Below, piece after piece: positions 2,541 to 45,482 of a stretch of DNA of 64,000 nt; positions within the stretch are counted from its first letter, which is position 1; every line of letters begins with the position of its first letter. A program made the translations under genes and the position numbers. The DNA is from an archaeon (lineage in GTDB: Archaea > Aenigmatarchaeota > Aenigmatarchaeia > GW2011-AR5). The stretch spans positions 30,518 to 94,517 of the forward strand of contig JANQNA010000003.1 of assembly GCA_028279825.1 (NCBI GenBank), written 5' to 3'. Below the pieces are notes generated by a model, which did not search any database, was not told the DNA's origin, and was given only the letters and a program-made list of their open reading frames with translations.

Positions 2541-5243
2541 TCAAACAAAATTTTTTCTTAACCTAACTATTATACCACTTAACTTACTTTTTTCATACCC
2601 TACGCCCTGACCAAGCGACTTTGTACCGCCACCTTTGCCGTTAAGCTCTTCACAAACCTCTTTTACAATTTTCCCGGCGTCTTCTTTTCTGTTTTTGCCA
2701 ACTGATACCAAAACATGAATTTTTTCATTCTTGCCAAACAAAACCAGTATTCTGTCGTCTGCAGATAATTTTTTTGATATGTTCTGCAAAGTTTTTTGAT
2801 CTGCCTCAAGTTCTTGGACCAAAACATTCTCTACTATTTTATCTTCAAGATATTCCGTCATGCCCGATGCTTCTTGTTCTATTGTTTTTTCTTTCTCCTT
2901 TTTGGATTTCTTCCATTTTTCCAGAAGATCTTCCGTACCTTTTACCAGATCCTTTACACCAAGAATTTTTTTACACTCATCAACTATCCTGTCAACCCTT
3001 TCTTCATATTTTTTGGCAGCAGGTCCTGCCACAAAGTCTATACGAGCTATATTGTCCTGTATTCTCTCAGTAGAAACAATAACAATTTTCCCAACCTCTG
3101 AAGTCGAATCTAAGTGTGTCCCGCCGCAGGCCTCTACGTCAGTACCTGCTATATTAACTATGCGCAGTTCTCTGCCTGGCACAGCACCACCCTGGTATAT
3201 ACCAAAGCCATGCTTACTCTCAGCTTCACCCCTGTTAACGAATTTCTTGTCTATACGCTTCGACGAAGAAACAATATCATTTGCCTCTCTTTCTATACGA
3301 TATAATTGTTCATCGGTTATAGCCGTGTAGTGAGTAATATCCAGATGTGCTTTGTCAACATCCTTGAAGGCGCTTGCCTGGTTAATATGATTACCTAAAA
3401 CCCTGCGGGCAGCTTCATTAAGTATATGGGTCCCTGTGTGATGTTTTGCCAGCTGTATTCTTCTTTCCCCGTCTATCTCCACTTTTACAGGCTGGCCTTC
3501 TACAAAACTCGGCTTACTGAGCATTTTATGAACGATTAGTGCACCCTGCTTGAAAACTTCCACAAAGGGTTCTTTGTTTATTGTGCCTGTATCATGCATC
3601 TGGCCGCCTGATGTAGGATAAGCCACTGTCTGATCTAATATAACGTAATTGTCTACTATTTTCTGTACAGTAGCGGTGTTGGAGAATTTTTTGTAATCAG
3701 CAAAGTATAACGCTTTTGTTGCAGTCACATCGCCAAAATCAATATCAACAGCCTTCTTTGTAGCATGCTTCTGCTCATGATGTTCGTGTATATTGGATAT
3801 AAGTGAATAAAAATTATCAGGCACGTCTATCTTTTTTCCTATCTGTTTTGCTTCCCTTAAGACCAGTTCCGGTGGAACACCATGTGAATCATAAAGTTCT
3901 ACAAGATCATCAAGATCAACATCTCTTGAGACCACTCTTTTAACAAGCTGTACTGATTTCTTCTTCGTCTTTTCATACTTTTCCTTTTCGATATCAAAGA
4001 TCTTTTCCACATTATCCAGGTTTTCCTTTAGCTCTGGCACCTGCGGTTTCAGATATTTTGCATGAAGCTCAAAGAGTTTCTTTACATCAATATTCCAGTC
4101 GTTTTTGTCTATAAACCCTAGCATTCTTCTAAAGATAATACGAAGATTATACGAGTCACCAACATTCGATGGTATCGCCCCGTCACTAAACATCAAAAGC
4201 AGAGCCCTGCTATGTTCAGCCACGGAATACAGCCCGGCCAATGGAAGAATATTCTCCTTTAATGTACTCACGTCTGTACCGACTTTTTGTGCAACATCCT
4301 TCCAGGAGTCTTCAACATTTTCTATTTCATCCAGATTTAACAATCCACCATAAGGAACAAACCTGCCAATAAGTTTTTTGTCAAACTTCAGTTTAGTTTG
4401 TTTTAGCAAATGTTCCATTACTGTTGGGAAAGTAGCGTCGTATATTGTGTTTGTACCCTGTGAAAACCAGGCATTTCGTTCCTGCCCCATACCCATGTCC
4501 AGAACCTTCAGATCTAAGTCACGAAGTCCATTATCACTTTGTTCATACATCATGTAGACCTGATTGCCAAGCTCATTGCCTCTCGAAAAGAACTCCATAC
4601 AAGGACCAAGATTACCGCCACCGGCCCAGGCATCTTCATGAAAAGTCACCTCGCTGTTCGGCAGTCCGAGCCCCTTCTTCAGCCAGGCGTGTATATGTTC
4701 CAATACAAGGTTCTGGTCCCACTCCGAAGGCTGTACAAACGCATGTTGTCCTATCATCGAGAAAACAGTATTGTGACTGCCTGTTATCCCGACATTGTCA
4801 ATGTCCACAGTACGAAAGCAATATTGTGGAATAACAAGCCTCTTCGCGGGAGGTTCAACTTCTCCGGATACAACAAACGGCTGGAATGCCGCTATAGAAG
4901 CATTTGTGAATTCCATTGTCGGATTCCATCTAGCAACAATAGGATAACGATTAATAGGAGTATAGCCAAACTTTTCAAACATTTTTGAAAAGCGCTTCCA
5001 GACTTGTATGTAATCAAGTTTCTTTTTCGCCGGAGATTTGCCGATAAAGGCAAAAGGAATCTCGCCGCATGCAGGATCCCCGCAAGTATCGCGACCTTCG
5101 GTCGCCCAAAAAGGTTTTTTACAATTTTTACATTTCCTTCTTTTGTAACCTTCCGTTTGAAGATACTCTGTGGCGTAATACTTCTCAGGATCCTTGTAGA
5201 AGCTGCCTACATACTTCTTTTTCGCTTCCTTATCTGTTAACAT
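2541..5243 (-). CDS. alaS: Alanyl-tRNA synthetase
   Basis: About 900 aa of class II AlaRS. It has the editing-domain HxxxH / CGGTH signature (HHTGTHIL, ACGGTHL), a zinc finger CKNCKK...C near the N-terminus, and a C-terminal DHHA1-like region. Probable start is MLTDKEAKK; the ORF track adds 16 upstream codons. Confidence 0.9.
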   Translation of the reverse strand: MLTDKEAKKKYVGSFYKDPEKYYATEYLQTEGYKRRKCKNCKKPFWATEGRDTCGDPACGEIPFAFIGKSPAKKKLDYIQVWKRFSKMFEKFGYTPINRYPIVARWNPTMEFTNASIAAFQPFVVSGEVEPPAKRLVIPQYCFRTVDIDNVGITGSHNTVFSMIGQHAFVQPSEWDQNLVLEHIHAWLKKGLGLPNSEVTFHEDAWAGGGNLGPCMEFFSRGNELGNQVYMMYEQSDNGLRDLDLKVLDMGMGQERNAWFSQGTNTIYDATFPTVMEHLLKQTKLKFDKKLIGRFVPYGGLLNLDEIENVEDSWKDVAQKVGTDVSTLKENILPLAGLYSVAEHSRALLLMFSDGAIPSNVGDSYNLRIIFRRMLGFIDKNDWNIDVKKLFELHAKYLKPQVPELKENLDNVEKIFDIEKEKYEKTKKKSVQLVKRVVSRDVDLDDLVELYDSHGVPPELVLREAKQIGKKIDVPDNFYSLISNIHEHHEQKHATKKAVDIDFGDVTATKALYFADYKKFSNTATVQKIVDNYVILDQTVAYPTSGGQMHDTGTINKEPFVEVFKQGALIVHKMLSKPSFVEGQPVKVEIDGERRIQLAKHHTGTHILNEAARRVLGNHINQASAFKDVDKAHLDITHYTAITDEQLYRIEREANDIVSSSKRIDKKFVNRGEAESKHGFGIYQGGAVPGRELRIVNIAGTDVEACGGTHLDSTSEVGKIVIVSTERIQDNIARIDFVAGPAAKKYEERVDRIVDECKKILGVKDLVKGTEDLLEKWKKSKKEKEKTIEQEASGMTEYLEDKIVENVLVQELEADQKTLQNISKKLSADDRILVLFGKNEKIHVLVSVGKNRKEDAGKIVKEVCEELNGKGGGTKSLGQGVGYEKSKLSGIIVRLRKNFV

Positions 5244-5299
5244 GTCTACCCAAGTATAGTTAGAAAAAACAAAATTTAAAGCAAAAAACAAAAAAAGGT

Positions 5300-11572: not shown

Positions 11573-11845
11573 ATGAGTTCAGGTATATCATTCCCAGCTA
11601 CACGTGCATGGTTGGCTTTTTCTATAAGGGGTTATCATGTTGAAAGGGAGAATGGCGGATGGACAGTTCTACATGATGCAATTGAAGTTACACATTATGA
11701 AAGATCAGACAGTGGGGGATTAAGTTTCCGGCTTTTTTCCCAGGATCCGGTAGTTAAGGAAATAGCAGATAGACTTGGAGAAAATGTAATTTATGCTTAT
11801 GCACATGGTTTGCAGGCATTTGGACAAGAAACATCTACTCCATGA
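11573..11845 (+). CDS. Hypothetical protein
   Basis: 90-aa ORF with no recognised motif. Confidence 0.35.
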   Translation: MSSGISFPATRAWLAFSIRGYHVERENGGWTVLHDAIEVTHYERSDSGGLSFRLFSQDPVVKEIADRLGENVIYAYAHGLQAFGQETSTP

Positions 11846-14645
11846 ATATTCCAAACTTGTTGGGTGAAGCTACTTTTGCTTTTTGATTTGTTGTCTTGTC
11901 GGCATCTATGATTTCTATCTTTGTGTTAGTTTCTCTCTGAAGAAATTCTTTTGCCTCCTTAAGAAGAATCAACTGCATGCTTTTTGTCATTACAGGTTTT
12001 AGCTCGTTAAGTTTTTTGTAAAGAGACTGGATAAACGACACAGTAGCCTTGCCGTAGGCCCCCGAGGACATTATCTCCTTGGTTATTGTATTCATGTTCT
12101 GATCTTTGTTCCTCAAAACCTTTTGATACACCCTGAACTTCCAGTCTTCTGCGATGAAGAGTATTATCTTCTTTGGCTTCATTTTCACGATTCTCTGAAG
12201 ATCTTCTATATCATTCAGAGTCTTTTTCAACATATCCTCACCCAGCTCAGCTTCATTACTCAGCCTTGTGCTGTCCCATTTCGGCCAGCCGGATATCATC
12301 TTCTTGTTGCCCAGATTGCTCCACATTTCCTCACAAACGTGCGGTGTGAACGGAGTTAGAAGCTTGACAATTACTCCCGTGTATTCCTTGATTACTTTCT
12401 TGTTCGCATTTTTCAGGTTGCCTGTCCTTCTCAAATACCACTTAAGATCCGAAGTGGCCTCGAATAGCGCGCTTTGCACGGCATCGCGGAACATCATTGA
12501 TTCCATTGATTTTGTCGTACTTTCTATAATTTTCTGCAGCTTGCCCTGCATGAACAGGTCAATATTCTCCATCTTCGTCTTCTTTGCCTTTTTCCAGTCT
12601 GTAGACAACTGAAACAGTGTATCATAGCGGTTCCTGTAAGCCTTTACTGATTCTTCTCTCCAGTCAGCATCATCAATTCCCTGGCTGGAACCAACCATGT
12701 TTATCCTTACCATGTCGGCACCGTGCTGCTCTAATAGGCTTTTCAGTGGTATTATGTTGCCCTTTGACTTGCTCATCTTTTCCCCTTCAACGTTGACGTA
12801 GCCGTTGACACTTATTCCATTTGGCCATTTTGCCCTTGGGAATAAAGCAATATGGTGGAACATGAAGAATGTAAGATGATTTTGTACAAGATCTTTCCCG
12901 CTGGATCTCATATCTACAGGATAGAAATATTCGAACTCTTTTCTGAGGTCTCTCAGAATCGAAAGCTTTAATTTTGAAGCTTTCGCCACCTTCTTTGTAT
13001 CACCCTTGCCTGTGAAAATAAAGTCAAACACTTCGTCTGTCAGCTTTTCCGGTTTTACCTTTTTTTCATTGATTATTCTCGCAAGTGTATAGTAAGCCAT
13101 GTAAATTGTTGAGTCACTCAACGTTTCAACAATCCATTCCCTGTCCCATGGAATAGGCGTGCCTAAACCACTCTTTCTCGCACATGCTTTGTCTCTTAAC
13201 CAGTCTATCGTGTTTTCAAAGTTGTTCCTGGCCTCTTCCGGGTAAATAGTCATTCTTGAAAGGTTTGTCCGTACATCTTTCTTCCATTCTTCGTCTGAAA
13301 ACTTCAGGAACCATTGATTTTCCAGAATCTTAACATGACAACGGGTATTACATCTGCACACAACTTCACCGACTTCCCACATGACATTTGCAACACCTTT
13401 TTCTATGAAATCCAGTGTTAGTTTCTCTTTTGATTCGTTAACTTTCGTTCCTGTATATTGTCCTGAATTTTTTACAGTTCCCGTATGGAATTCTTTCTTA
13501 TAGAGCAACGAAGTTGCTTCATCAAGCTTTTTCGTATCCGATAAGTCCTTTATACCCATTTGCTCACATAGCTCCACAGCAGGTAATTCACCAAACCCTT
13601 CAACCTCTATCACACTGACTGGTTCTATGTCCGTGCGTTGTGTGTTGTACAGCTGCAGTTCATCCTTGTCCATAAGCTCCATTAATGCGGCCCAGTCATA
13701 AGGCGCGTGAGCAGGCACGCTCATTACAACACCTGTGGCCGTATCTCCACCAACAAATTTTGAAGGAAGGATAGGAATCTCTCTGTTTGAAACAGGATCT
13801 ATGCATCTTTTACCAAAAAGTTCTTTCACGTCAAAATCACTGATAATTTCAACTTTCATCTGGTCCTTCAGTTTTTGCGCAGCTTCGTTGCTGATTATCC
13901 ATCTTTCCCCGTCCACATCTGCCTCGACGTAGTGAGTATCCGGATTCAGCCACATGTTCGTCACACCATATATTGTCTCCGGCCGAAGCGTAGCTGCCGG
14001 CAAGATGTAACCAAGATAAGTGAACTTAAGAAGTACATAGTCAACAGGGCTCTCTCCTTCTCCTATTAGCCTGTCGTGATCACCCGTTGGACTTAAGTCT
14101 TTAGGGCACCATACCACAGGGTGTGTTCCCTGTGTCACAAAACCTTTCTCCTTTAGAGTATTATATTGCCACTCGATAAATCGAGAATATGTAGGCGTGA
14201 GTGTTGTTGTGACGAATTTACGTCTCCAGTCTATGGACATACCGGCTGCCTCCAGCGTAGCGATCCATTTTTTTATGAAAAAGTGAACAAGATTCTTTGG
14301 GTCTTTCTTGAAACCTTCTATGTCCTTTTCTGTAGCCCCATACCCATGCATTGCCTGGATTTGTGATTCATCGCCATTGTTAAGTCTCTTGACGACACCG
14401 ATAATTGGCTCACCTGTCGCGTGAAAACCCTGTGGGAATAGAACATTGAACCCCTGCTGGCGTTTATAACGCGCATATACATCCGTGCGGAATGCCGAAT
14501 AACCATGACCAACGTGTGGGGGACCGTTTACGTAAGGATAAGGAAACGTGATAAAGAATTTTTTGCCTTTGGATACATTAGCCTCAAACATCTTGGCCTT
14601 TTTCCATTTCTTCTGCCACTTACTGTCAAACACTTTAAAATCCAT
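11835..14645 (-). CDS. leuS: Leucyl-tRNA synthetase (archaeal type)
   Basis: 936 aa with YPYVNGPPHVGHGYSAFRTDVYARYKRQQGFNVLFPQGFHATGEPI (the archaeal LeuRS HIGH region) and KMSKSKGN. Confidence 0.9.
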   Translation of the reverse strand: MDFKVFDSKWQKKWKKAKMFEANVSKGKKFFITFPYPYVNGPPHVGHGYSAFRTDVYARYKRQQGFNVLFPQGFHATGEPIIGVVKRLNNGDESQIQAMHGYGATEKDIEGFKKDPKNLVHFFIKKWIATLEAAGMSIDWRRKFVTTTLTPTYSRFIEWQYNTLKEKGFVTQGTHPVVWCPKDLSPTGDHDRLIGEGESPVDYVLLKFTYLGYILPAATLRPETIYGVTNMWLNPDTHYVEADVDGERWIISNEAAQKLKDQMKVEIISDFDVKELFGKRCIDPVSNREIPILPSKFVGGDTATGVVMSVPAHAPYDWAALMELMDKDELQLYNTQRTDIEPVSVIEVEGFGELPAVELCEQMGIKDLSDTKKLDEATSLLYKKEFHTGTVKNSGQYTGTKVNESKEKLTLDFIEKGVANVMWEVGEVVCRCNTRCHVKILENQWFLKFSDEEWKKDVRTNLSRMTIYPEEARNNFENTIDWLRDKACARKSGLGTPIPWDREWIVETLSDSTIYMAYYTLARIINEKKVKPEKLTDEVFDFIFTGKGDTKKVAKASKLKLSILRDLRKEFEYFYPVDMRSSGKDLVQNHLTFFMFHHIALFPRAKWPNGISVNGYVNVEGEKMSKSKGNIIPLKSLLEQHGADMVRINMVGSSQGIDDADWREESVKAYRNRYDTLFQLSTDWKKAKKTKMENIDLFMQGKLQKIIESTTKSMESMMFRDAVQSALFEATSDLKWYLRRTGNLKNANKKVIKEYTGVIVKLLTPFTPHVCEEMWSNLGNKKMISGWPKWDSTRLSNEAELGEDMLKKTLNDIEDLQRIVKMKPKKIILFIAEDWKFRVYQKVLRNKDQNMNTITKEIMSSGAYGKATVSFIQSLYKKLNELKPVMTKSMQLILLKEAKEFLQRETNTKIEIIDADKTTNQKAKVASPNKFGIFME

Positions 14646-14734: not shown

Positions 14735-14854
14735 GGGTTCGTAGCTCAGCTTGGATAGAGCATTAGCCTTCTATCTTCGGAAGAAAGCTAAGGGTCGCGG
14801 GTTCGAAAACTGTATGAGAGCTTTGCTCTCCGGTCGATTATCCCGTCGGGCCCA
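14735..14854 (+). tRNA. tRNA-Arg (anticodon TCT) with a 12-nt intron at 37/38 and a ~32-nt insert in the T-loop
   Basis: Acceptor GGGTTCG/CGGGCCC+A. D arm GCTC-AGCTTGGATA-GAGC. Anticodon stem TTAGC/GCTAA with loop CTTCTA|tcttcggaagaa|A. Exon nt 32-35 CTTC pair with the intron 3' end GAAG to give the 4-bp BHB helix. T stem GCGGG/CCCGT encloses TTCGAaaaCTGTATGAGAGCTTTGCTCTCCGGTCGAttat. A T-run follows. Confidence 0.8.
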
Positions 14855-14871
14855 CTTTTTTAATTGTGGGA

Positions 14872-16392
14872 TTAAGCACTATATTCAACTAATTCTTCAC
14901 TTTTTTTCCAAGGTTGTGAATGATTCACTGCTCTATTTTCATAAGTATAACCAAAATCAAATCCCTTACTTGAAACCAAGAATTGTTCTCCATTTCTATC
15001 AAATAATCCTCTTTCCCTAGCACCTTCTAAAAATGTTCTTTGTGCTCTGTAAACTTCATCCTGACATTGTAAGTGATATTCATCATCCCCGACCAACATT
15101 TGATTATATCTACAACCACCACCACAGGAAGTTGAAACATCACATGGTTCACAAGTATCATCGGCCACATCACTTACAAAAGTACTTCTCAATGAAGCAA
15201 AGTCTGGGGTCTCAAATATATTTCCAAATGGTTTTGTTTTTCCAATAGACCAATTGCATCCATATAGATCGCCGTTTGGAGCTATAGTTAATGTTGTCCC
15301 ATCTGTTGGATGGCAGTGAGCATATCTCGGATATGCATCAAAGGGTACCGAACCATCTTTTCTTATTAATCCTTTCGAAGCATGTGCTAAACTTTCTGTG
15401 AATTTTATTCCCTCAAACCTTGTTCTCTCTAGAGCACTTGCCATATCAGGTTTGGAAAGTACATCTATCACAGCTAAAATGTATGCAGCTTCGTTCTCTA
15501 TATTTTGCCCCTGTGTGCTAACTCCACCATAATTCCGAATCAAATTTATTCCATGAACAAAACCTCTTTCATACCATCCTCTCTGTTCCATTTCTTGTAT
15601 ATGTCTTTTAAGATCTCCTAAGCCAGCAATTCCTAAATTTTGTTTTGCCAAAACTCTTACATCCCTATCTAAAAGCTGGTCTATACCCCTTACAACCAAG
15701 TCATAACTTCCTCTATGAGAACCAGGTTTTCCCATTGGTCTTTGAGAATCATGTATTTCCTTGGATCCGTCTAGAGTTATATCAACCTCTGTTATTCTAT
15801 CTCTGTGCCTGGATAACAAATCCAAATACGCTTGATTGATTGTGGCCCCGCTTGTTATAACACTTACATAGTATCCTCTATTTTCAGCTAATTTAAGGAG
15901 GCCTTCATTAAGTTGAAAATTTGCTTGTTGTAGTGGCTCCCCTCCAAAAAGATTCAATGAAATTCTATCTGAAGGTAAGTCTCTGAATTCTCTATAAGCG
16001 CTAATTGCCCTATCTATTTCTCGTATATCTCCTTCTACCAATCTTTTTTTACCACCTTCACTTCTTACATCCTTTTCAAAACAATAAGTACAAGACAGTG
16101 GACATGACATAGTTTCTGTGATAAAGAATGTAGTTGGTCTGGATTCTTGCTTTTTTTCAGCAAATTCTCTCATCTTGTCTTTTTGAATTCTAATTGTATC
16201 TTGTGTATGAAAGAAATGATTAAGATCTGGGTTCAGTTCTCTATCTCTTTTTGAGAAACCCGTTTGAGAATTAAAATCTGTTGAATTAAAGGCATCAGGA
16301 TCAGCTACTAAAACCGAACCTCTTAGTTTATCAACTACAAAAGTATCATTCCCTGTTTCATATACTACGAAATTTCCTTGTTTTTGATCCAT
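14872..16392 (-). CDS. Radical SAM / SPASM-domain protein (peptide-maturase-like) with ~95-aa N-terminal extension
   Basis: CPLSCTYC (Cx3Cx2C) sits at residues ~97-104. The C-terminal SPASM cluster reads HCHPTDG...YGC ... CEPCDVSTSCGGGC. Confidence 0.8.
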   Translation of the reverse strand: MDQKQGNFVVYETGNDTFVVDKLRGSVLVADPDAFNSTDFNSQTGFSKRDRELNPDLNHFFHTQDTIRIQKDKMREFAEKKQESRPTTFFITETMSCPLSCTYCFEKDVRSEGGKKRLVEGDIREIDRAISAYREFRDLPSDRISLNLFGGEPLQQANFQLNEGLLKLAENRGYYVSVITSGATINQAYLDLLSRHRDRITEVDITLDGSKEIHDSQRPMGKPGSHRGSYDLVVRGIDQLLDRDVRVLAKQNLGIAGLGDLKRHIQEMEQRGWYERGFVHGINLIRNYGGVSTQGQNIENEAAYILAVIDVLSKPDMASALERTRFEGIKFTESLAHASKGLIRKDGSVPFDAYPRYAHCHPTDGTTLTIAPNGDLYGCNWSIGKTKPFGNIFETPDFASLRSTFVSDVADDTCEPCDVSTSCGGGCRYNQMLVGDDEYHLQCQDEVYRAQRTFLEGARERGLFDRNGEQFLVSSKGFDFGYTYENRAVNHSQPWKKSEELVEYSA

Positions 16393-16507
16393 ATTCCTTC
16401 ATCTATACAATTTTTTTCTTCAATGGCCCCATCCAACTTAGAATCCTAGATTTTATTTTTATGAGTTGAAATCATTCAAAGAAAACCGAAGTTAGAATTC
16501 ATAGTCT

Positions 16508-17413
16508 TTAAGCAGCCAACTTTGCCTGTGCCTTATGATGAGAGTGCATTCCCTTGAACTGTTGGAGACTGGTATCCATTGTATTTATGGCTCCAAGCAG
16601 CTCCCTTGAATTAAATGGCCCATCATAAGAACCTCCTTTTATTTCATCCTTTAAGTTGTAAATCTGATTAACAGCACAACCGGCACAACACCCAAGTTCG
16701 TCCCCAGATTTCCCAGTAAGATAACCTGCTACATCAATTACGTCAGTTTTTGCTTTCTCATAAATTCCAGTACTTACCGATTCAGCAACTTTTGATACGT
16801 ATTCCTTGGAAACATGATCTCCTTGTTGCAAGGTTGGCCCCGAAACACCCAATTCACTGCCAACTTGACTTTCACTGGAATAACCAATTGATTCAACGAC
16901 AGATTTATCTGGTTCTAAATTATTATCTAATTCACCCTCACTACGTTTAACAATACCCTCTTCCCAATTCAAACCATCATATGACATACCTTCTTCCCAA
17001 TCTAAACGATCATATGACAAACCATCTTCGGCTCTTTTTTCGTACGCTCCTTTCCCAATTCCTGAATACTGTAAATCGTCTGAATCTTTACCATAAGAAT
17101 CTCGTCTTTCTGAAGATTTGTAATCTTTTAGTCCCTCTTTTTCTTCACCCTCCTCGTCGTCATCTTCATTGTCATCATCTCCATCCAAGTCAAGATCTTT
17201 TTCATTACGTATTACAGAACCTGTTTCACCAGTGAGTAGCGCTTTGTTTAGCTCTACAAGAAAATCTTCTTCGGACCCCTCACTCCCCATTTCGATTATT
17301 TTTTCATCGTCAATTTCAATTTTATCCTCGTCCAGAGAAATATCTACAAGCTTCTTCTTTTTCATAGCACGAAGTATGTAGTTATTAAGTTTTATAGCTA
17401 TTGTTAATAACAT
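16508..17413 (-). CDS. Highly acidic repeat protein with C-terminal GCCAGC motif
   Basis: Asp/Glu-rich (DLDGDDDNEDDDEEGEE). It has tandem repeats GLSYDRLDWEEG / MSYDGLNWEEG and a C-terminal GDELGCCAGCAVNQ. The start may be Met17 (MKKKKL). Confidence 0.55.
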   Translation of the reverse strand: MLLTIAIKLNNYILRAMKKKKLVDISLDEDKIEIDDEKIIEMGSEGSEEDFLVELNKALLTGETGSVIRNEKDLDLDGDDDNEDDDEEGEEKEGLKDYKSSERRDSYGKDSDDLQYSGIGKGAYEKRAEDGLSYDRLDWEEGMSYDGLNWEEGIVKRSEGELDNNLEPDKSVVESIGYSSESQVGSELGVSGPTLQQGDHVSKEYVSKVAESVSTGIYEKAKTDVIDVAGYLTGKSGDELGCCAGCAVNQIYNLKDEIKGGSYDGPFNSRELLGAINTMDTSLQQFKGMHSHHKAQAKLAA

Positions 17414-17518
17414 TTTGCTTTTTTGACGAAAATATTAATATCGCGAAAAAAACGCATTCTAGTGATATTGGGTTTCGTTATTTTACATCTTCTTAAACAC
17501 AGTCAACAATTGTCATTA

Positions 17519-17689
17519 TGGCCAAAAATGACTATGAGGTTTCAGGTATTGCATTCGTAGGTTGTTTACTCCTGGGAATGGCAATAGGTATGCTCTATGG
17601 CGAGACAGCTGTTGGCATATTCGGCGGATTGGGCGTTGGTTTTATCGTTATGGCTCTTATAGAGCTCAAAATGAGAAAACAAGCTTAAT
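17519..17689 (+). CDS. Possible small (56 aa) Gly-zipper membrane protein
   Basis: MAKNDYEVSGIAFVGCLLLGMAIGMLYGETAVGIFGGLGVGFIVMALIELKMRKQA gives two predicted TM helices, immediately upstream of minD. Below the ORF-track size cutoff. Confidence 0.35.
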
Positions 17690-17714
17690 ATACTTTAATT
17701 GAGAAGTTTTAGTA

Positions 17715-18488
17715 TTGGGTGCGGTCATGACCAGAATAATAGGTGTTGTTTCAGGTAAAGGTGGTGTTGGTAAAACAACTATGGTTGCAAATCTTGGTAC
17801 AGCACTGGCAAAACTTGGAAAAGACGTCATAATTCTTGATGCAAATCTTACCACTCCTAGTCTGGGACTTCATCTTGGAGTTCCGTTATACCCTGTAACT
17901 CTTCATGATGTTCTGAAAGGGCACGCAGGAATTAAGGATGCTATCTACTCGCATGAAAGTGGATTAAGAATAATTCCTGCGGGTATATCACTCCGTGATA
18001 TGAGAGGCGTTGACTCTAAAGATCTACCTAATGCTCTGTTAGATCTGTTAGGCAGTGCAGAAATAATCCTTCTTGACGCTTCAGCAGGCTTTGGCCGTGA
18101 ATCCTTGGCAGCCATGGAAGCAGCCGATGAGATCTTGATAGTTACAAATCCTGAAATATCCGCTGTAACGGACGCATTGAAGGCTTCAAAGTTATCCGAA
18201 CAGCTTGGTACAAAAGTGACCGGTGTAATAGTAAACAGAGTTACCGGCAAGAAACACGAAATGAGTGAAAGGGATATTGTCGGGATGCTGGATACTGTAA
18301 ATCTTCTTGGTCAGGTCCCTGAGGACGTAAACGTTCAGCAGGCTGTATCAGGCAGGGTTCCTGTCATCAGATATTCCCCCAAGGCAAAGGCAAGTGGCAG
18401 AATAATGAATATAGCTGCTGAACTTGTAGGCCGTGATCCTGTATACAAGAGCACGCCATGGTACAAGAGGATGTTTCCTTTCAGATAA
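17715..18488 (+). CDS. minD: MinD/ParA-family P-loop ATPase
   Basis: Deviant Walker A GKGGVGKTT and a 257-aa MinD-like layout. Confidence 0.85.
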   Translation: MGAVMTRIIGVVSGKGGVGKTTMVANLGTALAKLGKDVIILDANLTTPSLGLHLGVPLYPVTLHDVLKGHAGIKDAIYSHESGLRIIPAGISLRDMRGVDSKDLPNALLDLLGSAEIILLDASAGFGRESLAAMEAADEILIVTNPEISAVTDALKASKLSEQLGTKVTGVIVNRVTGKKHEMSERDIVGMLDTVNLLGQVPEDVNVQQAVSGRVPVIRYSPKAKASGRIMNIAAELVGRDPVYKSTPWYKRMFPFR

Positions 18489-18552: not shown

Positions 18553-18870
18553 TTAACCGTATAACAAAATACCAAATATTATCAGGATTTCCATGAATAT
18601 CCACATACCGGCGGACAGTATAATCGGCCTGTCTTTATGAAAAAGCCCGTAATTCAACCAAAACATTGAAGTAAAAAGATAGGCCCCCCATGTTATGATG
18701 GATACACCGGATGCGTTTTTATTAATCCATATTTCTACAACTTGTGTTATAGTCATCAGAGGTCCGATAAAGACTATGAAATATATTATCCTGTCTATAA
18801 ACCTTTTTTTCACCGGCTTTACTTTTTGATGTTTTCTGTGATGATGTAGTCCATACAATTTATTGACCAT
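18553..18870 (-). CDS. Hypothetical small membrane protein (3 TM)
   Basis: Hydrophobic helices. The probable start is MVNKLYG. Confidence 0.45.
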   Translation of the reverse strand: MVNKLYGLHHHRKHQKVKPVKKRFIDRIIYFIVFIGPLMTITQVVEIWINKNASGVSIITWGAYLFTSMFWLNYGLFHKDRPIILSAGMWIFMEILIIFGILLYG

Positions 18871-18880
18871 AGCTAACACT

Positions 18881-20524
18881 CTATTTCTTGAATATAAATT
18901 CGAGATCAATCTCAAATGCAACCACAGGATTTTCTAAATCCCATGAGTTAAGCACGGATGGATGAATCTCGCCTATGAAGCCCAGTGAAGTTTTCCCGAC
19001 GAATATCTCTGCTGTGCGACCTTCTATGAAACTGTCATGCCTGCCTTTTTTCAGGTAGTAATCAATTCCTATGTTGCGGAAAAATGCATCCAATCTTTGT
19101 GATATTGTTTCATAACTCACATTGCCTGTACAGGCAGCTGCTAACTTTTGAACATCCCTTGCCTTTGTTTCCCTGGAGTTGTCCGCAAGGACAACATTAC
19201 CTATCTCAAAAACGGATTGTGGATATTCAACATGCCTGTTTTTAGAGAATATGTCCATTAACCCGGGTATCAGACTTGTTCGGAAAACAGACCAGTTTGC
19301 AGACATAGGTTTTTCTATCTCGACGGCTTCGCCGTCGGTATTCATTCTTGCGTAAAGATCATTTACATTTGTTAATGTGTAAGACATTATTTCCTGGAAT
19401 CCTGCACCAATCATTATCTCTGTAAGCTTGTCTATGATGTGAATCTCTTTAGAGATTCCACCTTTTGTTATAGTTTTCAGTTCTTCAGGTTCTATATCGT
19501 TAAAGCCGTATGAAATTATTACGTCTTCTATTACATCATCTTCATGCATTATATCCTGGCGGTATGCTGGGTACAGAACATCAATCTTCTTTCCTTTCTG
19601 TTTGGCATCATATAGTGATTTTTTCAGAAGAACCAGAATCTCTTCTGTCTTTAGCGTTAATCCCAGCATCTTGTTTACAGAATCAACGTTTATTGTATAT
19701 TTCTTCGGCGTGAGATTTGGTGTAACTTCTGAAGTTTTTTGGTAGTTTACTTTTACAGAATATATCGTCCCGCCGCGCTCTGCAAGTGCAGCAACAAGAA
19801 CGTTTATGGCTGTGTTCAAAAACCTGAGATCAAATCCACTGCATTCTATAAAGACGTCAGTAGTCTTTTCCGTAATCTTTCCGCTAAAATCAGAATTGAT
19901 TATAGGCGGCATCGAGAGGACTTCACCGACAGAGTCAATGAATATAGGAAAGTCTTCCTTCAGCAAGTGTCCAAACTCTTTACCCTTTGGGTGTTTTTCC
20001 AGAATTTCTTTAGGATGTAACTTTTCCTTGAACTCCAAAGGCACAAAACTAATGTCCTTGTCTTTGACAGATTTGAACGTTATCGGGAATTGTAATTGTC
20101 CAACATCATAAACACCTATTGCAACTTCCCTGCGGTTGCTGCCAAACGTACCGGCTACCTTTTCTTGCAGCTGAATCATTTGCGACAACATGTTTTCATC
20201 TATTTTCAGTCCCTTCACAACAGCACACGTTGTAAAAGGTCTAACTTTTTCCACACTCTTGTCCACGTTGACAACGTAGTCAGACTTCTTTACTTCGTAT
20301 TTTGGCAAACCAGGACTATATCTTGCCTTTATCTCTCTTGCAACACCTTCGGCACTCCAAAGGTCAGGACGATTTGTATCCTTAATGTCCAATTTAAGCA
20401 CGTCACCCTCTACCTTATCCAACTCAGTCTTGGCAAACATGACATCATCGCGCAATTCCTCTATAGACAGTTTACGCCCGATTAGTCCGCATAAATCCTT
20501 GTGTGATACATCTATTGTTGGCAT
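18881..20524 (-). CDS. pheT: Phenylalanyl-tRNA synthetase beta subunit
   Basis: About 545 aa with archaeal PheT B3/4 and B5 domains, immediately downstream of pheS. The probable start is MPTIDVSHKDL. Confidence 0.85.
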   Translation of the reverse strand: MPTIDVSHKDLCGLIGRKLSIEELRDDVMFAKTELDKVEGDVLKLDIKDTNRPDLWSAEGVAREIKARYSPGLPKYEVKKSDYVVNVDKSVEKVRPFTTCAVVKGLKIDENMLSQMIQLQEKVAGTFGSNRREVAIGVYDVGQLQFPITFKSVKDKDISFVPLEFKEKLHPKEILEKHPKGKEFGHLLKEDFPIFIDSVGEVLSMPPIINSDFSGKITEKTTDVFIECSGFDLRFLNTAINVLVAALAERGGTIYSVKVNYQKTSEVTPNLTPKKYTINVDSVNKMLGLTLKTEEILVLLKKSLYDAKQKGKKIDVLYPAYRQDIMHEDDVIEDVIISYGFNDIEPEELKTITKGGISKEIHIIDKLTEIMIGAGFQEIMSYTLTNVNDLYARMNTDGEAVEIEKPMSANWSVFRTSLIPGLMDIFSKNRHVEYPQSVFEIGNVVLADNSRETKARDVQKLAAACTGNVSYETISQRLDAFFRNIGIDYYLKKGRHDSFIEGRTAEIFVGKTSLGFIGEIHPSVLNSWDLENPVVAFEIDLEFIFKK

Positions 20525-20525
20525 A

Positions 20526-20756
20526 CTACACCCTTCCATAGAACAATGCTTCCAACTTCTCACCATCTTTTAGCGGTCTCTCATCAAAGAAGGATATCAT
20601 CTGTTCTTTTGTTTCTTCATTCTCGAATATGATAGCAAACTTGTCTTTTTCATTAAACATACACCCTGGCATTAGTATATGGAAATGCCACTTGACTTTG
20701 TTCTTGTAACATTCCTCCGCTTTTTTCAACAATACAGAAAATTCTACTTCATTCAT
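20526..20756 (-). CDS. Hypothetical small protein
   Basis: 76 aa between pheS and pheT (4-nt overlap with pheS). No motif recognised. Confidence 0.4.
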   Translation of the reverse strand: MNEVEFSVLLKKAEECYKNKVKWHFHILMPGCMFNEKDKFAIIFENEETKEQMISFFDERPLKDGEKLEALFYGRV

Positions 20757-21997
20757 ACAACCACCTGTTTTCTCAAAAGATCTAAATTCTGGCTGAACAG
20801 ATCACGAATATCTTTTATTCCAAGCTTGAACATGGCTAGCCTGTCTATTCCCAGTCCCCATGCTATGACAGGAACATCAACACCCAACGGCTGTGTTAAC
20901 TCTTTTCTGAACACACCCGCACCGCAAAATTCTACCCATCCAAGTTCAGGGTGTTTTGCGGACATCTGGACAGACGGTTCCGTAAAAGGATAATAGTCTG
21001 GGAAAAACTTTACCTTCTCAGCACCGGCAAATTCTATTGCAAACTTTTTCAGTATACCCAACAGACTTCGAAAGTTAAGCGTCTCATCTACAACAATACC
21101 TTCTGTCTGGTTAAACTCAACACCATGTGTAGCATCTATTACATCCGGCCTGTAGCATCTTGCTATAGAAAAGTATCTTCCAGGTATTTTACAATTCGTA
21201 AGCGTACGCGCCGACGTAGCCGTGCCGTGTGCACGAGGCATCAACCTTGACGCTTTCTCCGGCGACCACTTATAACCCCAGCCGATGCTGCCTGTAGTCC
21301 ATCCATTTTCGTGCGCAGCTTTTACGTTATCCAGCAAAGCACCGCCAGGAAGATCCCCGTTCTTTGGAGATTTTAGAGAATATGTCTGTGTCCAGTCACG
21401 GCTTGGGTGGTTCTGTGGTTGATACAACGCATCAAAGTTCCAGAATTCTAGCTCAATAGTCGGCCCGATCATTTCCTGAAAACCTAACTCCACCAACTTC
21501 TTTCTTACATCACCGAGAAAAGCATTATACGGATGTCTTTTACCGATGTGCATCTTCTTACCCGGGGATTCAACATTGTACGGACGAAGCTTGACATCCT
21601 TCCATACACCCGATTTAATAAGATCAGTATTCAGTGAAGTTACTTCCTGCCCCTTGTACTTTTCCGCTCTTTTTAACAGATCCTCTCCGCCTTTCTTGAC
21701 AAGTTTTCTGGAAATAAGCGTTTCTACTATAGAAGTTTCCTTGTCATCTGAAACATCCTTTAAACCATTTTGCTGATCTTCTATTTCTTTTGGCTCTTTT
21801 GTTAGGGTTAACTTGCCGTGTACAACTTCTACACAATCATATTTCTTGCACCATTGAAGGGCTATGGAAAATTCTTTACCAAGTTTCTGCGTTGCCTCTT
21901 TCATTTCCACAGGCCCATCCCTTATTAGCTCTATTAACCTCTTCTCAGGTAACCCCTTCTTTAGGTACTTTTTGCCTTCTTCTGTTAGTACATACAT
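20753..21997 (-). CDS. pheS: Phenylalanyl-tRNA synthetase alpha subunit
   Basis: Class II motifs 2 and 3 (FRKELTQPLG...GAGVFRKE / GLGIDRLAM) with an N-terminal winged-helix region. Confidence 0.9.
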   Translation of the reverse strand: MYVLTEEGKKYLKKGLPEKRLIELIRDGPVEMKEATQKLGKEFSIALQWCKKYDCVEVVHGKLTLTKEPKEIEDQQNGLKDVSDDKETSIVETLISRKLVKKGGEDLLKRAEKYKGQEVTSLNTDLIKSGVWKDVKLRPYNVESPGKKMHIGKRHPYNAFLGDVRKKLVELGFQEMIGPTIELEFWNFDALYQPQNHPSRDWTQTYSLKSPKNGDLPGGALLDNVKAAHENGWTTGSIGWGYKWSPEKASRLMPRAHGTATSARTLTNCKIPGRYFSIARCYRPDVIDATHGVEFNQTEGIVVDETLNFRSLLGILKKFAIEFAGAEKVKFFPDYYPFTEPSVQMSAKHPELGWVEFCGAGVFRKELTQPLGVDVPVIAWGLGIDRLAMFKLGIKDIRDLFSQNLDLLRKQVVV

Positions 21998-22470: not shown

Positions 22471-23946
22471 ATGACGCAAGAGAAGATAGAAGAAGTGGCC
22501 AGAAGGCGAGGGTTCTTCTGGAAGGGATCAGAGATATACGGCGGACTCTCCGGTTTTTACGATTATGCTCATTTAGGATCAGCTATAAAGATCAAGTGGG
22601 AGAACGAGTGGAGAAAGTTTTTCCTATCTCTGGACGACAATTTCTTTGAAATTCAACCAGCAAATATAATGCACGAAAAAGTGTTCATAGCCTCCGGCCA
22701 TGTTGATTCTTTCGTAGATCCGGTTGTAAAGTGTAAAAAATGCGGTAACTTCGAGAGAGCAGACCAGATACTTGAGCACCATCTCAAAGAGAACTTTGAA
22801 GGAATTGAGCCTAAAGAATTGGAAAATTTGATAAAGAAGCATGATATAAAATGTCCTAAATGCGAGGGTAAGTTCGAAGAAGTCGGGTCATTTAACTTGC
22901 TGTTTCCTTTGACTGTCGGTGCAGAGAATCCGCAAAAGGCTTATCCCCGCGGCGAGACGGCCCAGGGTGTTTACGTAAACTTTGCCCGGGAGTTCGAGTG
23001 CCTAAGAAAAAAATTGCCAATGGGTCTGGCCATCGTGGGCAAAGCCTACAGGAACGAAATCAGCCCTAGAAACTTATTGTTAAGGATGCGTGAGTTTACA
23101 CAGGCAGAACTGCAGATATTCTTTGACCCGGAAAAAATAGAGGAACACCCAAAATTTGAAGAAGTAAGAACTGAAAAACTTCGCGTTCTTTTTGTGAAAA
23201 ACAAAGAATCCAAGGAAATTACGGCTGAAGAATTAACCAACAGATTACCCCAGTTTTATGTTTACCACATGGCCAAGGTACAAAAATTCTTTTTGGAAGT
23301 CATGAAGTTCCCTAAAGAAAAATTCCGGTTCAAGGAGTTATCTGAAGAAGAACGGGCATTCTACAACAAATATCACTGGGATGTTGAACTAGAGCTTAGC
23401 AACGGTTTTACGGAAGTTGGCGGTGTTCACTACAGAACAGACCATGACCTTTCAGGACATCAAAAAGTATCTAAAGAAGACATGTCCGTCTTCACAGATA
23501 AAAAAATCCTGCCGCACGTTCTGGAATTAAGTTTTGGAGTTGATCGTAATGTTTTGGCCCTGCTGGAACTAAATTATCGTGAAGATGAAAGAAACTTTTT
23601 CACGTTTCCCAGAAATGTCTCACCATTCCATTGTGCGGTTTTTCCTTTAGTCAAGAAAGACGGTCTGGACGAATTAGCCACAGAAATAAAAGAGCTGTTG
23701 AAAGAAAACCTTTCTGTGTTCTACGACAATTCAGGAAGCATAGGCCGCAGATACAGGCGAATGGATGAGATCGGTGTGCCGCTTTGTTTAACGGTTGATC
23801 ACAAGTCTTTAGAGGACAAAACCGTAACACTTCGTGATCGCGATTCAATGGCACAGGTTAGGGTGAAAATTAGCGATCTGGAAGATTTTATGCGCAGATT
23901 TTTCAAAGGAGAAGACCTGCAAAACCTCGGAGTTATAGTTAAATAG
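22471..23946 (+). CDS. glyS: Glycyl-tRNA synthetase (archaeal/eukaryotic alpha2 type)
   Basis: MTQEKIEEVARRRGFFWKGSEIYGGLSGFYDY is the N-terminal signature of alpha2 GlyRS, and class II motifs are present. Confidence 0.9.
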   Translation: MTQEKIEEVARRRGFFWKGSEIYGGLSGFYDYAHLGSAIKIKWENEWRKFFLSLDDNFFEIQPANIMHEKVFIASGHVDSFVDPVVKCKKCGNFERADQILEHHLKENFEGIEPKELENLIKKHDIKCPKCEGKFEEVGSFNLLFPLTVGAENPQKAYPRGETAQGVYVNFAREFECLRKKLPMGLAIVGKAYRNEISPRNLLLRMREFTQAELQIFFDPEKIEEHPKFEEVRTEKLRVLFVKNKESKEITAEELTNRLPQFYVYHMAKVQKFFLEVMKFPKEKFRFKELSEEERAFYNKYHWDVELELSNGFTEVGGVHYRTDHDLSGHQKVSKEDMSVFTDKKILPHVLELSFGVDRNVLALLELNYREDERNFFTFPRNVSPFHCAVFPLVKKDGLDELATEIKELLKENLSVFYDNSGSIGRRYRRMDEIGVPLCLTVDHKSLEDKTVTLRDRDSMAQVRVKISDLEDFMRRFFKGEDLQNLGVIVK

Positions 23947-39066: not shown

Positions 39067-39214
39067 TGGGCCGCGTGAGATTTGAACTCACGACCTCCTG
39101 CTAACCTAGATCACAACGATGTAAACTGTATGACGCATCTTGAATGCGTCTTTCTACTTCTTATCGTTGTGTGTCATATAAGACAGGTGCTCTACCAGGC
39201 TAAGCTAGCGGCCC
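39067..39214 (-). tRNA. Intron-containing tRNA, anticodon reads TAT (tRNA-Ile UAU) with a 74-nt structured intron at 37/38
   Basis: Reverse complement: GGGCCGC-TA-GCTT-AGCCTGGTA-GAGC-A-CCTGT-CTTATA|intron|A-GCAGG-AGGTC-GTGAG-TTCAAAT-CTCAC-GCGGCCC-A. Exon nt 32-35 CTTA pair with the intron 3' end TAGG to form the 4-bp BHB central helix. The intron holds a 9-bp helix CACAACGAT/ATCGTTGTG and an inner hairpin GACGCAT-tcaag-ATGCGTC. Confidence 0.7.
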
Positions 39215-41059: not shown

Positions 41060-41530
41060 ATGAATGATGAAGAAACCACAGAAATTCTCAGAAAACCCTC
41101 AAGAGATACTGTTCAGACACCGTCATGGCAACACAGAGAAATGCCACACGACGGAGTTTATCTCTCTTTATACGACAAAGAAGGCCAAGATTATTCCTTA
41201 CAAATAACAGTTAATGGAGAGGGTTCAGAGGAAGCTGCCCTTGGGCACGCACGTGCATTCTCAGTATTTTATGGTACTGGTGGCTCTGATTCAAAACACA
41301 TAGGTGGTGTAGGATTTAGCTCAGTAGCCTACTCACGAAGAGGTCGATTAAGCCCGCTAAGACGAGCAGAAATAGAAGAAGTTTACTGTTTTTTCGCGAG
41401 GGAAATTGAAGATTTTCCAGACAGAGATCTTCTATCTACAATAAAAAAGGATCTAGAAAAACTGTATAGAGAAGCCGTGAAAAATTTAGACGGAGACTGG
41501 GGAGCCCACGAACCTACTTCTTCTCAATAA
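41060..41530 (+). CDS. Hypothetical protein
   Basis: 156 aa with no recognised motif. Confidence 0.4.
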   Translation: MNDEETTEILRKPSRDTVQTPSWQHREMPHDGVYLSLYDKEGQDYSLQITVNGEGSEEAALGHARAFSVFYGTGGSDSKHIGGVGFSSVAYSRRGRLSPLRRAEIEEVYCFFAREIEDFPDRDLLSTIKKDLEKLYREAVKNLDGDWGAHEPTSSQ

Positions 41531-44456: not shown

Positions 44457-45482
44457 CTATTTTTTTGCCGTAGTCATGTAAAGCAGATCATTCCCCGAAA
44501 GCAGCCGCTCTGAAGTTACATGATTAAAACCAACTTCAAATAATTCTCTTGCATATTGCAGTGCAGGTCTATGCCCTTCTAACAACAAAATATCATCCTC
44601 TGGTCTGAATTCACCTGCTTCCTGTGCCTTTCTTCTTACATCTGCCCAGCCTCCCCAGAAATTTCGTATTGTTGCATTGGCTTCAAATTCAGCAGAACTC
44701 CCAACTCTTCCTGGGGATTCTAAAGCCTTTGGATAGGCCCTGGCAAAATCATCAAGATCACTATGTTTTGTCTCCCAATCAAACCTTTTTAAAAATTCAA
44801 AAACACGATGAGGATGCTCCCACATTGAATTGTGCCAGTCCGGCAAAAGAACTGAACCACCATGTTTTGTCACATGATAAAGAACTCTAAATGGTGTATC
44901 AAGGTAAGCATGATGGTGAATAGCAGCAACAGCACTTACTATATCCTGTGAGCCACGAGGTGTAAAATCTCTTGCATCTATGTCCCTTGCTGCATGTGTA
45001 GTGAAGTCTTTATCTTTTTTTAGACCCAGCTCTTCCAAATCAGCTGTCATTTTATCAAGTCGTTCTTGTGATGGCTCTATTAGTGTTGCATATACACGTT
45101 CTATGTCAATATTATCCGCCAGAAGTTTTTCATAAACATTAACAGTACTAACACCTGCACCACATTCCAGATAATTTACTGTACCCATCATTTCTTGAAC
45201 AAGTTTTGATACAGCAGCTGCATTTGCATTCCGCAATATTTGAGGGAAATTTTGCAAACCGGCAGCTTCTGTAGCCTCTATAACATATTTCATCTGCCTT
45301 GGCGAACCGCCTTCCCATTCCATTCTGTAAGCATCATCACTTCTTTCTCTGAACTCACCCTCAGGAATACCCCAGTTAGAATAAGCATAAGATGGCACAC
45401 GCAAAGCAGAACCAAGTCTGACAGGCATAAGCGGCGAAAAAACTTCATCACTAGCAGGATTAAATTCAGGCATGTCTACCAT
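44457..45482 (-). CDS. Putative class I SAM-dependent methyltransferase-like protein
   Basis: Motif I-like LECGAGVST. 341 aa. Family not resolved. Confidence 0.45.
   Translation of the reverse strand: MVDMPEFNPASDEVFSPLMPVRLGSALRVPSYAYSNWGIPEGEFRERSDDAYRMEWEGGSPRQMKYVIEATEAAGLQNFPQILRNANAAAVSKLVQEMMGTVNYLECGAGVSTVNVYEKLLADNIDIERVYATLIEPSQERLDKMTADLEELGLKKDKDFTTHAARDIDARDFTPRGSQDIVSAVAAIHHHAYLDTPFRVLYHVTKHGGSVLLPDWHNSMWEHPHRVFEFLKRFDWETKHSDLDDFARAYPKALESPGRVGSSAEFEANATIRNFWGGWADVRRKAQEAGEFRPEDDILLLEGHRPALQYARELFEVGFNHVTSERLLSGNDLLYMTTAKK

Follow-up and report, generated by a model that had tools for sequence, protein, structure and literature searches.

A rare radical-SAM/SPASM enzyme and an acidic neighbour in a variable tRNA-Arg–minD segment of an Aenigmatarchaeota genome

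The window analysed here is a 64-kb stretch of DNA from a DPANN archaeon of the Aenigmatarchaeota, and in it a radical S-adenosylmethionine (SAM)/SPASM enzyme of 506 amino acids (aa) is encoded next to a very acidic protein, both within a segment that extends from a doubly interrupted tRNA-Arg(TCT) gene to minD. The enzyme is a new and very rare member of a well-known radical-SAM/SPASM architecture. The explanation that we prefer, and that we hold to be rather probable, is that it is a horizontally transferred and currently orphaned maturase of the type that carries an RRE, the recognition element for peptides that are made on the ribosome and modified after translation (RiPPs), and that it stands beside an unrelated, lineage-restricted acidic protein. 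We propose that the enzyme gene reached an Aenigmatarchaeota genome alone and came to lie where tRNA-Arg(TCT) and minD enclose a hypervariable spot. In the home genomes of its clade it is translationally coupled to a small protein with an H-x3-C-P motif, usually with a 316-aa P-loop ATPase between the two. The two genes of the window are most likely juxtaposed accessory genes and not a co-evolved maturase–substrate pair, since the acidic family is elsewhere not linked to radical-SAM enzymes. The features that frame this argument are as follows.

14735..14854, plus strand: tRNA-Arg(TCT) gene with two introns, its spliced form called by ARAGORN; left edge of the variable segment
14855..17714, no strand: variable or inserted segment of 2.86 kb, from the 3' end of tRNA-Arg to the start of minD; lineage-specific
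14872..16392, minus strand: radical-SAM/SPASM enzyme, 506 aa, intact, defined by its open reading frame (ORF), Pfam and NCBIfam matches, alignments and an AlphaFold2 (AF2) model
16508..17413, minus strand: acidic protein, 301 aa (285 from M17), a real ORF with M17 (17365) as the probable start
17715..18488, plus strand: archaeal MinD (TIGR01969, 260 bits against a cutoff of 202); conserved right edge of the variable segment

Architecture of the enzyme and its relation to named families

The preliminary description had seen in the enzyme a CxxxCxxC motif and a full C-terminal SPASM cysteine array, and both are borne out. The Pfam family Radical_SAM (PF04055) is matched with 42.2 bits against a cutoff of 29.5 and the NCBIfam SPASM family TIGR04085 with 39.6 against 27; Fer4_12 is also matched, and the Pfam SPASM family (PF13186) scores 18.7, just below its cutoff of 21.5. 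The C-terminal array, C360-x13-G374-x4-C379 ... C414-x2-C417-x5-C423-x3-C427 ... C443, fits exactly the published formula for the seven-Cys SPASM domain, Cx9-15Gx4C-gap-Cx2Cx5Cx3C-gap-C (PMC6231123). All ten cysteines (three plus seven) are invariant across 27 homologues, and there is no conserved Cys between C104 and C360 in that alignment.

16081..16104, minus strand: CxxxCxxC (C97/C101/C104) for the SAM-binding [4Fe-4S] cluster, invariant in two alignments
15058..15330, minus strand: SPASM domain, its conserved Cys being exactly seven (C360, C379, C414, C417, C423, C427 and C443)
16138..16392, minus strand: N-terminal RRE-like domain, residues 1-85, from the AF2 model, NCBIfam alignments and Foldseek

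About 95 residues lie ahead of the radical-SAM core, as had also been noted before. The AF2 model of the enzyme (pLDDT 84.5, pTM 0.87, from an input of 27 sequences) reaches a pLDDT of ~90 in most 10-residue blocks between residues 11 and 100 and places in the N-terminal domain strands at residues 8-12, 17-21 and 27-30, followed by helices at 32-36, 48-53, 55-60 and 64-84. The RRE fold consists of a three-strand antiparallel sheet and three helices (PMC6231123), and in the model the N-terminal domain has this layout, with three strands and then helices before the barrel. Isolated N-terminal domains give no match to Pfam PqqD/RRE even at E<=10, so the RRE assignment rests on predicted structure. 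Several NCBIfam alignments to RiPP maturases begin at residues 6-17 of the enzyme, from which it appears that the extension is collinear with the N-terminal domains of those maturases, and in Foldseek comparisons TigE, CteB and SuiB are aligned over 480-506 columns and the anaerobic sulfatase-maturating enzyme (anSME) over ~400. The model and the alignments support an enzyme of the RRE-bearing peptide-maturase type and not an anSME, as the preliminary description had argued from its build.

That the enzyme is nevertheless of the anSME type, a housekeeping enzyme by which formylglycine is formed in a sulfatase, is scarcely credible. It scores 59.3 bits with the anSME family TIGR03942, far below the cutoff of 349.45. 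The anSMEs (4K36-4K39) have no N-terminal recognition domain and align to the core alone, over 319-400 positions, and their auxiliary clusters are fully Cys-ligated by means of an extra (eighth) upstream Cys (PMC6231123), whereas the enzyme has no conserved Cys between its CxxxCxxC motif and its SPASM array. None of the long ORFs in the 64 kb of the window has a sulfatase-type C/S-x-P-x-R motif, so that a sulfatase partner is lacking there, and the neighbours of the enzyme in its home loci are not sulfatases.

The best NCBIfam matches are peptide maturases, with E values from 1e-17 to 1e-24 and several of them near full length: TIGR04463 (rSAM_vs_C_rich), CefB (NF038107), the geopeptide family TIGR04280 and the nif11-like family TIGR04064, with further matches to PapB (NF047865), DynA, QhpD (TIGR03906) and the SCIFF maturase (TIGR03974). 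Most of these families act on Cys-rich peptide or protein substrates. The enzyme is a member of none of them, however, with scores of 60-84 bits against cutoffs of 340-600; the highest score for a named family is 84.3 bits against a cutoff of 525, and every named family is 4-10 fold below its cutoff. At curated cutoffs it falls outside TIGR04463, CefB, PapB, QhpD, SCIFF and CcpM, and it does not show the combination of equivalog score, PqqA/MftA-type precursor and PqqD/MftB partner that marks PqqE and MftC. The hidden Markov model searches that the preliminary description had proposed thus bring out RiPP maturases as the nearest families, all of them below their cutoffs.

From the RiPP maturases of solved structure, CteB (5WGG/5WHY), SuiB (5V1Q) and TigE (8VPO), the enzyme is set apart by an identity of just 14-18%. 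The window clade has no Pfam PqqD/RRE match and no short precursor-peptide gene alongside; the coupled gene of its home loci encodes a tail-anchored Cys/His protein of 131-153 aa, together with a P-loop ATPase; its neighbour in the window is an acidic protein of 301 aa; and the clade is archaeal (DPANN) and not bacterial. At the window locus there is no adjacent co-conserved precursor gene as expected of an RRE-dependent maturase, and neither the 115-nucleotide (nt) gap upstream of the enzyme gene, searched for a short precursor ORF, nor the Cys-rich small ORFs of the window yielded anything convincing.

Close relatives of the enzyme are four in number among 5.8 billion proteins (73, 66, 65 and 45% identity), the next best match being at 29%. 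None with more than 30% identity was found in scans of JGI metagenomes or IMG/VR viral contigs, a GTDB genome scan with the enzyme profile gave no match, and we found no description of this clade in the literature on radical-SAM maturases of DPANN archaea or Aenigmatarchaeota. The relative P0003, encoded in locus L001, falls within a 90% cluster that holds a protein named Candidatus Pacearchaeota, and the other contigs with relatives carry archaeal information-processing genes.

The enzyme, we propose, would have three parts: a recognition domain at the N-terminus, a TIM-barrel core that cleaves SAM, and a SPASM domain with twin clusters. Reductive cleavage of SAM would generate a 5'-deoxyadenosyl radical that takes a hydrogen from the bound peptide, and the resulting substrate radical would be trapped as an intramolecular cross-link. 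A Cys-derived thioether, formed with the aid of an auxiliary cluster, would be the favoured product, both because the nearest families (TIGR04463, CefB, PapB, QhpD and SCIFF) mostly act on Cys-rich substrates and because, with seven Cys ligands for two clusters, one site of an auxiliary cluster would lack a Cys ligand, as is the case for AlbA and CteB, for which an open Aux I site has been proposed or seen (PMC6231123). The substrate may be encoded beyond the window, or the acidic neighbour may itself be the substrate.

As a separate observation, an archaeal contig (L087/L088, 1551-9078) carries three consecutive radical-SAM genes interleaved with a gene for an S_layer_C-domain protein and followed by an ABC transporter. 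These radical-SAM proteins are 24% identical to the window enzyme, and the locus looks like a separate RiPP-like cluster.

The tRNA-Arg–minD segment and the origin of the enzyme gene

The host is identified as a member of the Aenigmatarchaeota by leucyl-tRNA synthetase (LeuRS; 11835-14645, minus strand), which in a GTDB genome scan is 53-66% identical to LeuRS of many Aenigmatarchaeota metagenome-assembled genomes (MAGs), whereas its identity to LeuRS of other archaea does not exceed 38%; the window is rich in housekeeping genes, among them several aminoacyl-tRNA synthetases, a thermosome, Topo VI B and FtsZ. The same scan with LeuRS supplied the syntenic loci. In nine related Aenigmatarchaeota contigs LeuRS is followed by an intron-bearing tRNA-Arg(TCT), oriented as in the window, and then by MinD, and the MinD copies that adjoin LeuRS in related MAGs are 59-90% identical to that of the window. 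The spacer between tRNA and MinD ranges in those nine loci from ~45 nt (L009) to ~1.1 kb and its contents vary from locus to locus. The corresponding spacer of the window is 2.86 kb long and contains the enzyme gene, the acidic-protein gene and an ORF of 56 aa with a predicted transmembrane segment, and no homologue of the enzyme or of the acidic protein was found in the LeuRS–tRNA-Arg–MinD block of nine or more Aenigmatarchaeota MAGs. The comparison thereby brings out a hypervariable tRNA-Arg-adjacent spot in the Aenigmatarchaeota.

The enzyme gene converges on the tRNA-Arg gene, its stop codon lying 17 nt from the tRNA 3' end, so the contact between the genes and the tRNA stands as first reported. 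The further suggestion that the tRNA serves as an integration site holds in part: it is a real insertion point relative to the syntenic relatives, but there is no ORF of integrase size in 14855-17714 and no att-like direct repeat of the tRNA 3' end near 17414-17714. With neither integrase nor repeat, the segment between tRNA-Arg and minD is a variable hotspot and not a recognisable integrative element. It shares with integrative elements targeted to tRNA genes the foreign composition of the genes directly 3' of the tRNA and a position that varies among related genomes, and differs from them, beyond the features just named, in being merely 2.86 kb long with two or three genes and in having no relatives on viral contigs.

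Three independent lines, namely the break in synteny, the foreign composition and an identity far above the housekeeping level, point to horizontal gain of the enzyme gene. Its GC content at third codon positions (GC3) is 0.203, the lowest of the 52 genes of the window (mean 0.396 +/- 0.057, z = -3.4), and matches that of the L001 and L006 contigs, where GC3 is 0.15-0.23 throughout. The enzyme is 66% identical to the copy of L001, whereas the alpha and beta subunits of phenylalanyl-tRNA synthetase (PheRS) are 36% and 38% identical between the same two contigs. Judged by composition and comparison of genes, the likeliest donor of the enzyme gene is an archaeon of low GC content that is akin to the L001/L006 lineages. 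The proximity of PheRS and enzyme genes both in the window and in L001 was considered as shared synteny and set aside as coincidence, since PheRS identity is no more than 36-38% and the enzyme gene is missing from the window's close relatives. That an Fe-S-rich peptide maturase should move from one DPANN phylum to another is a little surprising, as DPANN archaea have minimal genomes with few accessory enzymes; a role under selection is hinted at, perhaps in dealings with the host or in the handling of metals.

Foreign composition would also be expected if the 2.86-kb segment were a chimera of the metagenome assembly, joined at the conserved tRNA gene and foreign to this genome, and tRNA genes are classic join points of chimeric assemblies. 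We regard this as very improbable: a second join would be needed near minD, where there is no repeat, both flanks are typical Aenigmatarchaeota genes on one contig, and both proteins are recorded in two sources, NCBI and Logan.

Within the segment, 27 nt 5' of minD, lies a third, short ORF.

17518..17688, plus strand: Gly/Ala-rich hydrophobic ORF of 56 aa, whose reality is uncertain; none of the fetched loci holds a homologue, and NCBIfam gives no match

Outside the segment, three further genes of the window (41060-41530, 44457-45482 and 45466-45969) have a low GC3 of 0.26-0.29 against the mean of 0.40 and may also be foreign.

Home loci of the enzyme clade and the acidic neighbour

In the home loci of the clade the enzyme gene forms part of tightly coupled gene sets, at the following positions of the respective contigs.

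L001, 6644-9473: tightly coupled home-locus genes
L004, 6524-9491: tightly coupled home-locus genes
L005, 7600-9467: tightly coupled home-locus genes
L006, 269-4210: tightly coupled home-locus genes

A P-loop ATPase of 316 aa ends 1-3 nt 5' of the start of the enzyme gene in L001, L002, L003, L004 and L006, and since L001-L003, L004 and L006 represent three lineages, the coupling of ATPase and enzyme is seen in all three. The ATPase resembles MinD, ParA, Get3 and ArsA around the P-loop only. In L001 and L004 a protein of 131-153 aa with an H-x3-C-P motif is encoded 5' of the ATPase; in L005 its gene overlaps the start codon of the enzyme gene; at the visible edge of L006 a CobW-like GTPase is encoded in its place. 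In these small proteins the H-x3-C-P motif is invariant, the middle is His-rich in two of the three (L004 and L005), and a C-terminal hydrophobic helix is followed by a basic tail, which makes them look tail-anchored. The home loci may represent a metal-related module of protein maturation in DPANN archaea that is as yet undescribed. The L001 locus is flanked by genes for a Cu-ATPase, a heavy-metal-associated (HMA) domain protein and a cupredoxin.

None of the home-locus partners, including the H-x3-C-P protein and the 316-aa ATPase, is encoded in the 64-kb window. The MinD of the window is not a stand-in for the partner ATPase: it belongs to the common archaeal kind, shares with the 316-aa ATPase no relationship outside the P-loop and shows no tblastn similarity to it.

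The neighbour of the enzyme in the window is indeed very acidic, as first described, with a pI of 4.4 and 23% D+E overall, rising to 34% in residues 17-150, and chance alone would give 2e-4 ORFs of its length in the window. Residues 1-192 are predicted by AF2 to be disordered, and residues 200-301 form a confident four-helix domain (pLDDT ~90).

16511..16816, minus strand: residues 200-301, the C-terminal domain conserved in the acidic family, including CCAGC (residues 242-246, 16676-16690) and an MHSHH tail
16953..17018, minus strand: two tandem 33-nt/11-aa copies, LSYDRLDWEEG / MSYDGLNWEEG, 88% identical in nucleotide sequence

Two details of the protein had been read somewhat too broadly. 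The reported tandem repeats of 11-12 aa exist, but as exactly two 11-aa copies, a duplication and not an array, within the predicted disordered region (pLDDT < 50). The motif GCCAGC, described as C-terminal, is present and corresponds to a conserved CxGC motif, but it occupies residues 241-246, 55 residues before the C-terminus, with CCAGC at the N-terminal end of helix 3 in the AF2 model.

In a word-indexed search the acidic protein had found itself alone, and it was taken for a strict ORFan; this was overturned by an exhaustive phmmer search with residues 101-301 against 1.84 billion representatives, which gave four remote relatives (E 2e-21 to 8e-7). The family thus has five members among 1.84e9 representatives. 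A profile search with the family alignment gave no further members, none was found on viral contigs (IMG/VR), no Pfam or NCBIfam family is matched, and a fold search in the PDB returned only generic helical bundles at E > 0.4. In all of them the N-terminal half is acidic and of low complexity, and the C-terminal domain, ~95 residues long, bears the motif (H)-x-C-x-G-C-A ... G-x-Y-x-G-P ... Q-F-x-G-x-H-x-H, in which C243, G245 and A247 are invariant and C246 is present in four of the five members; a His precedes the Cys motif in three of the four homologues and is absent from the window protein. Directly downstream of the acidic member, L091 and L092 have a gene for an MBL-fold hydrolase (with Sec61-beta upstream of the acidic member), whereas L090 has an unrelated ORF; the contigs L089 and L173 end before any further gene. 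In L173 (1224-2427) the acidic member P0040 is encoded divergently from an upstream NikR-like regulator (ribbon-helix-helix, RHH, and NikR_C domains), and its C-terminal domain is truncated after CxGC. With the H-x3-C-P proteins of the home loci, this comparison has brought two tiny uncharacterised families to light.

The preliminary description had proposed that enzyme and acidic protein form a RiPP-like maturation system. The acidic gene lies on the same strand, 115 nt upstream of the enzyme gene. Yet a search of homologous loci did not bring up the acidic partner, and the candidate precursor of the home loci, the H-x3-C-P protein, is one that the window lacks: no homologue of the acidic protein occurs in five homologous enzyme loci, and in the other direction no radical-SAM gene was found next to other members of the acidic family, the downstream gene being a different one in L090, L091 and L092. 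The enzyme gene has its own A/T-rich upstream region and, as judged by eye, a T-run follows the acidic stop codon, so that co-transcription is not evident. A resemblance in motif between the acidic C-terminal domain and the small proteins of the home loci was also pursued and dropped, as hhalign detected nothing between the two (probability 0.2%). As far as gene neighbourhoods tell, the idea that enzyme and acidic protein are a conserved pair is not supported.

Several points nevertheless weigh against our preferred reading of a transferred, orphaned maturase beside an unrelated neighbour. The partners are missing from 64 kb of a contig of 180 kb. The other contigs of the acidic family are only 1-2.5 kb long, so a radical-SAM gene could lie slightly further off. 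The shared strand, the 115-nt gap, the common inserted segment and the low GC3 of the acidic gene (0.275, z = -2.1) leave room for its acquisition together with the enzyme gene as a unit. The type of reaction is a guess from similarity, with scores to named maturases of at most 84 bits against 300-855, and in this subfamily function cannot be read from similarity (PMC6231123). Finally, 11 of 189 sites that are invariant in the four homologues carry lineage-specific changes in the window enzyme; several (D to S, R to T, P to T and H to Y) are radical, and such changes could reflect altered specificity or relaxed constraint.

The chief alternative, which we consider unlikely, is that the acidic protein is the substrate or partner of the enzyme here, the two being a protein-scale RiPP-like pair that was acquired together or was re-paired after transfer. 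The RRE would then dock on part of the long, disordered acidic stretch, and cross-linking by the enzyme would join the cysteines of CCAGC, possibly to Asp or Glu as in PapB and QhpD. The arrangement of the two genes in the inserted segment, just described, speaks for such a pairing, as does the conservation of (H)-x-C-x-G-C-A and a His-rich tail in the acidic family. The coupled proteins of the home loci, too, carry H-x3-C-P and His-rich stretches, which suggests a functional analogy and a possible non-homologous replacement; at every locus the protein encoded upstream of the enzyme repeats the theme of a Cys motif plus a His-rich segment. Neighbours with a link to metals (the CobW-like GTPase; Cu-ATPase, HMA and cupredoxin in L001; NikR in L173) fit the same picture, and the nearest named families act on Cys-rich substrates that include a protein (QhpD). 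These analogies are met by the want of co-conservation in both directions and by the failure of the profile-profile comparison and of signs of co-transcription. In addition, the Cys motif belongs to a confidently folded four-helix domain and not to a flexible core peptide, and the window protein lacks the His that precedes the motif in three of the four homologues.

A wider version of this idea, which we think quite unlikely, would make the whole clade an undescribed DPANN maturation system for a tail-anchored, metal-binding Cys/His protein, the target being handled by the Get3/MinD-like ATPase and sometimes also by the CobW-like GTPase, with the enzyme re-paired in the window so as to cross-link the acidic protein with its CxGC motif and His tail. 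If true, it would be a natural case of a maturase that switched its substrate after horizontal transfer.

The absence of the usual partners from the window could also mean that the recently transferred gene has no substrate in this host and is a neutral passenger heading to decay. Recent arrival is implied by a codon composition that has stayed strongly foreign, and the radical substitutions at otherwise invariant sites would suit a gene under relaxed constraint. We judge this decidedly improbable: the ORF has its full length and keeps all the Cys that ligate clusters and all residues of the SAM motif, and the 11 changes in 189 sites do not exceed the 13 in 191 of the homologue P0004, whose partners are kept, so that there is no clear decay of the window enzyme. 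From genomes as small as those of DPANN archaea, genes without a use are generally expected to disappear fast. We retain the reading of a transferred enzyme, intact and orphaned at present, whose acidic neighbour is probably there by chance.

Introns of the tRNA-Arg gene and other features of the window

The tRNA-Arg(TCT) gene is doubly interrupted, as had been recognised from its letters, by an intron of 12 nt at 14774-14785 (position 37/38) and one of 33 nt at ~14808-14840 (T-loop, near 59/60). With both removed a canonical body of 75 nt remains, which ARAGORN calls tRNA-Arg(tct); the unspliced gene is missed by ARAGORN and by Rfam at the gathering threshold, a weak Rfam tRNA match spanning 14735-14805. 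Orthologous intron-bearing tRNA-Arg genes lie between LeuRS and MinD in related MAGs, with Rfam confirming a tRNA in L007 and L010, and one orthologue has a homologous T-loop intron.

The position of the introns varies among the LeuRS-adjacent tRNA-Arg(TCT) genes. An intron in the anticodon stem near 29/30 is found in L009, L007, L010, L008 and L013, D-loop and 37/38 introns together in L016, long introns at 37/38 in L024, L012 and L014, and a T-loop intron near 59/60 in the window, L013 and L020. Comparison of these genes indicates that intron gain, loss or sliding has probably been rapid at this locus in the Aenigmatarchaeota. The tRNA-Arg–MinD spacers of L013 and L010 have in common a non-coding block of ~60 nt (GCGCGCCATAAAAACACC...GCGAGCAGTACAAGGNCTAGA), the rest of the spacers being variable; the block matches no Rfam family and could be an unannotated small RNA or the remnant of a mobile element. 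Two more tRNA genes of the window, at 39067-39214 (minus strand, 148 nt) and 60142-60254 (plus strand, 113 nt), are detected by Rfam and not by ARAGORN and are presumably intron-bearing.

For its 64 kb the window is unusually dense in aminoacyl-tRNA synthetases: AlaRS, LeuRS, PheRS beta and alpha, a class II enzyme of the Pro/Thr type, a class I enzyme of the Ile/Val type and HisRS, at 2541-5291, 11835-14645, 18881-21997, 22471-23946, 55590-58454 and 60653-61891. The start of the PheRS beta gene is overlapped by a gene for a SemiSWEET-like transporter of 122 aa (18553-18921, minus strand).

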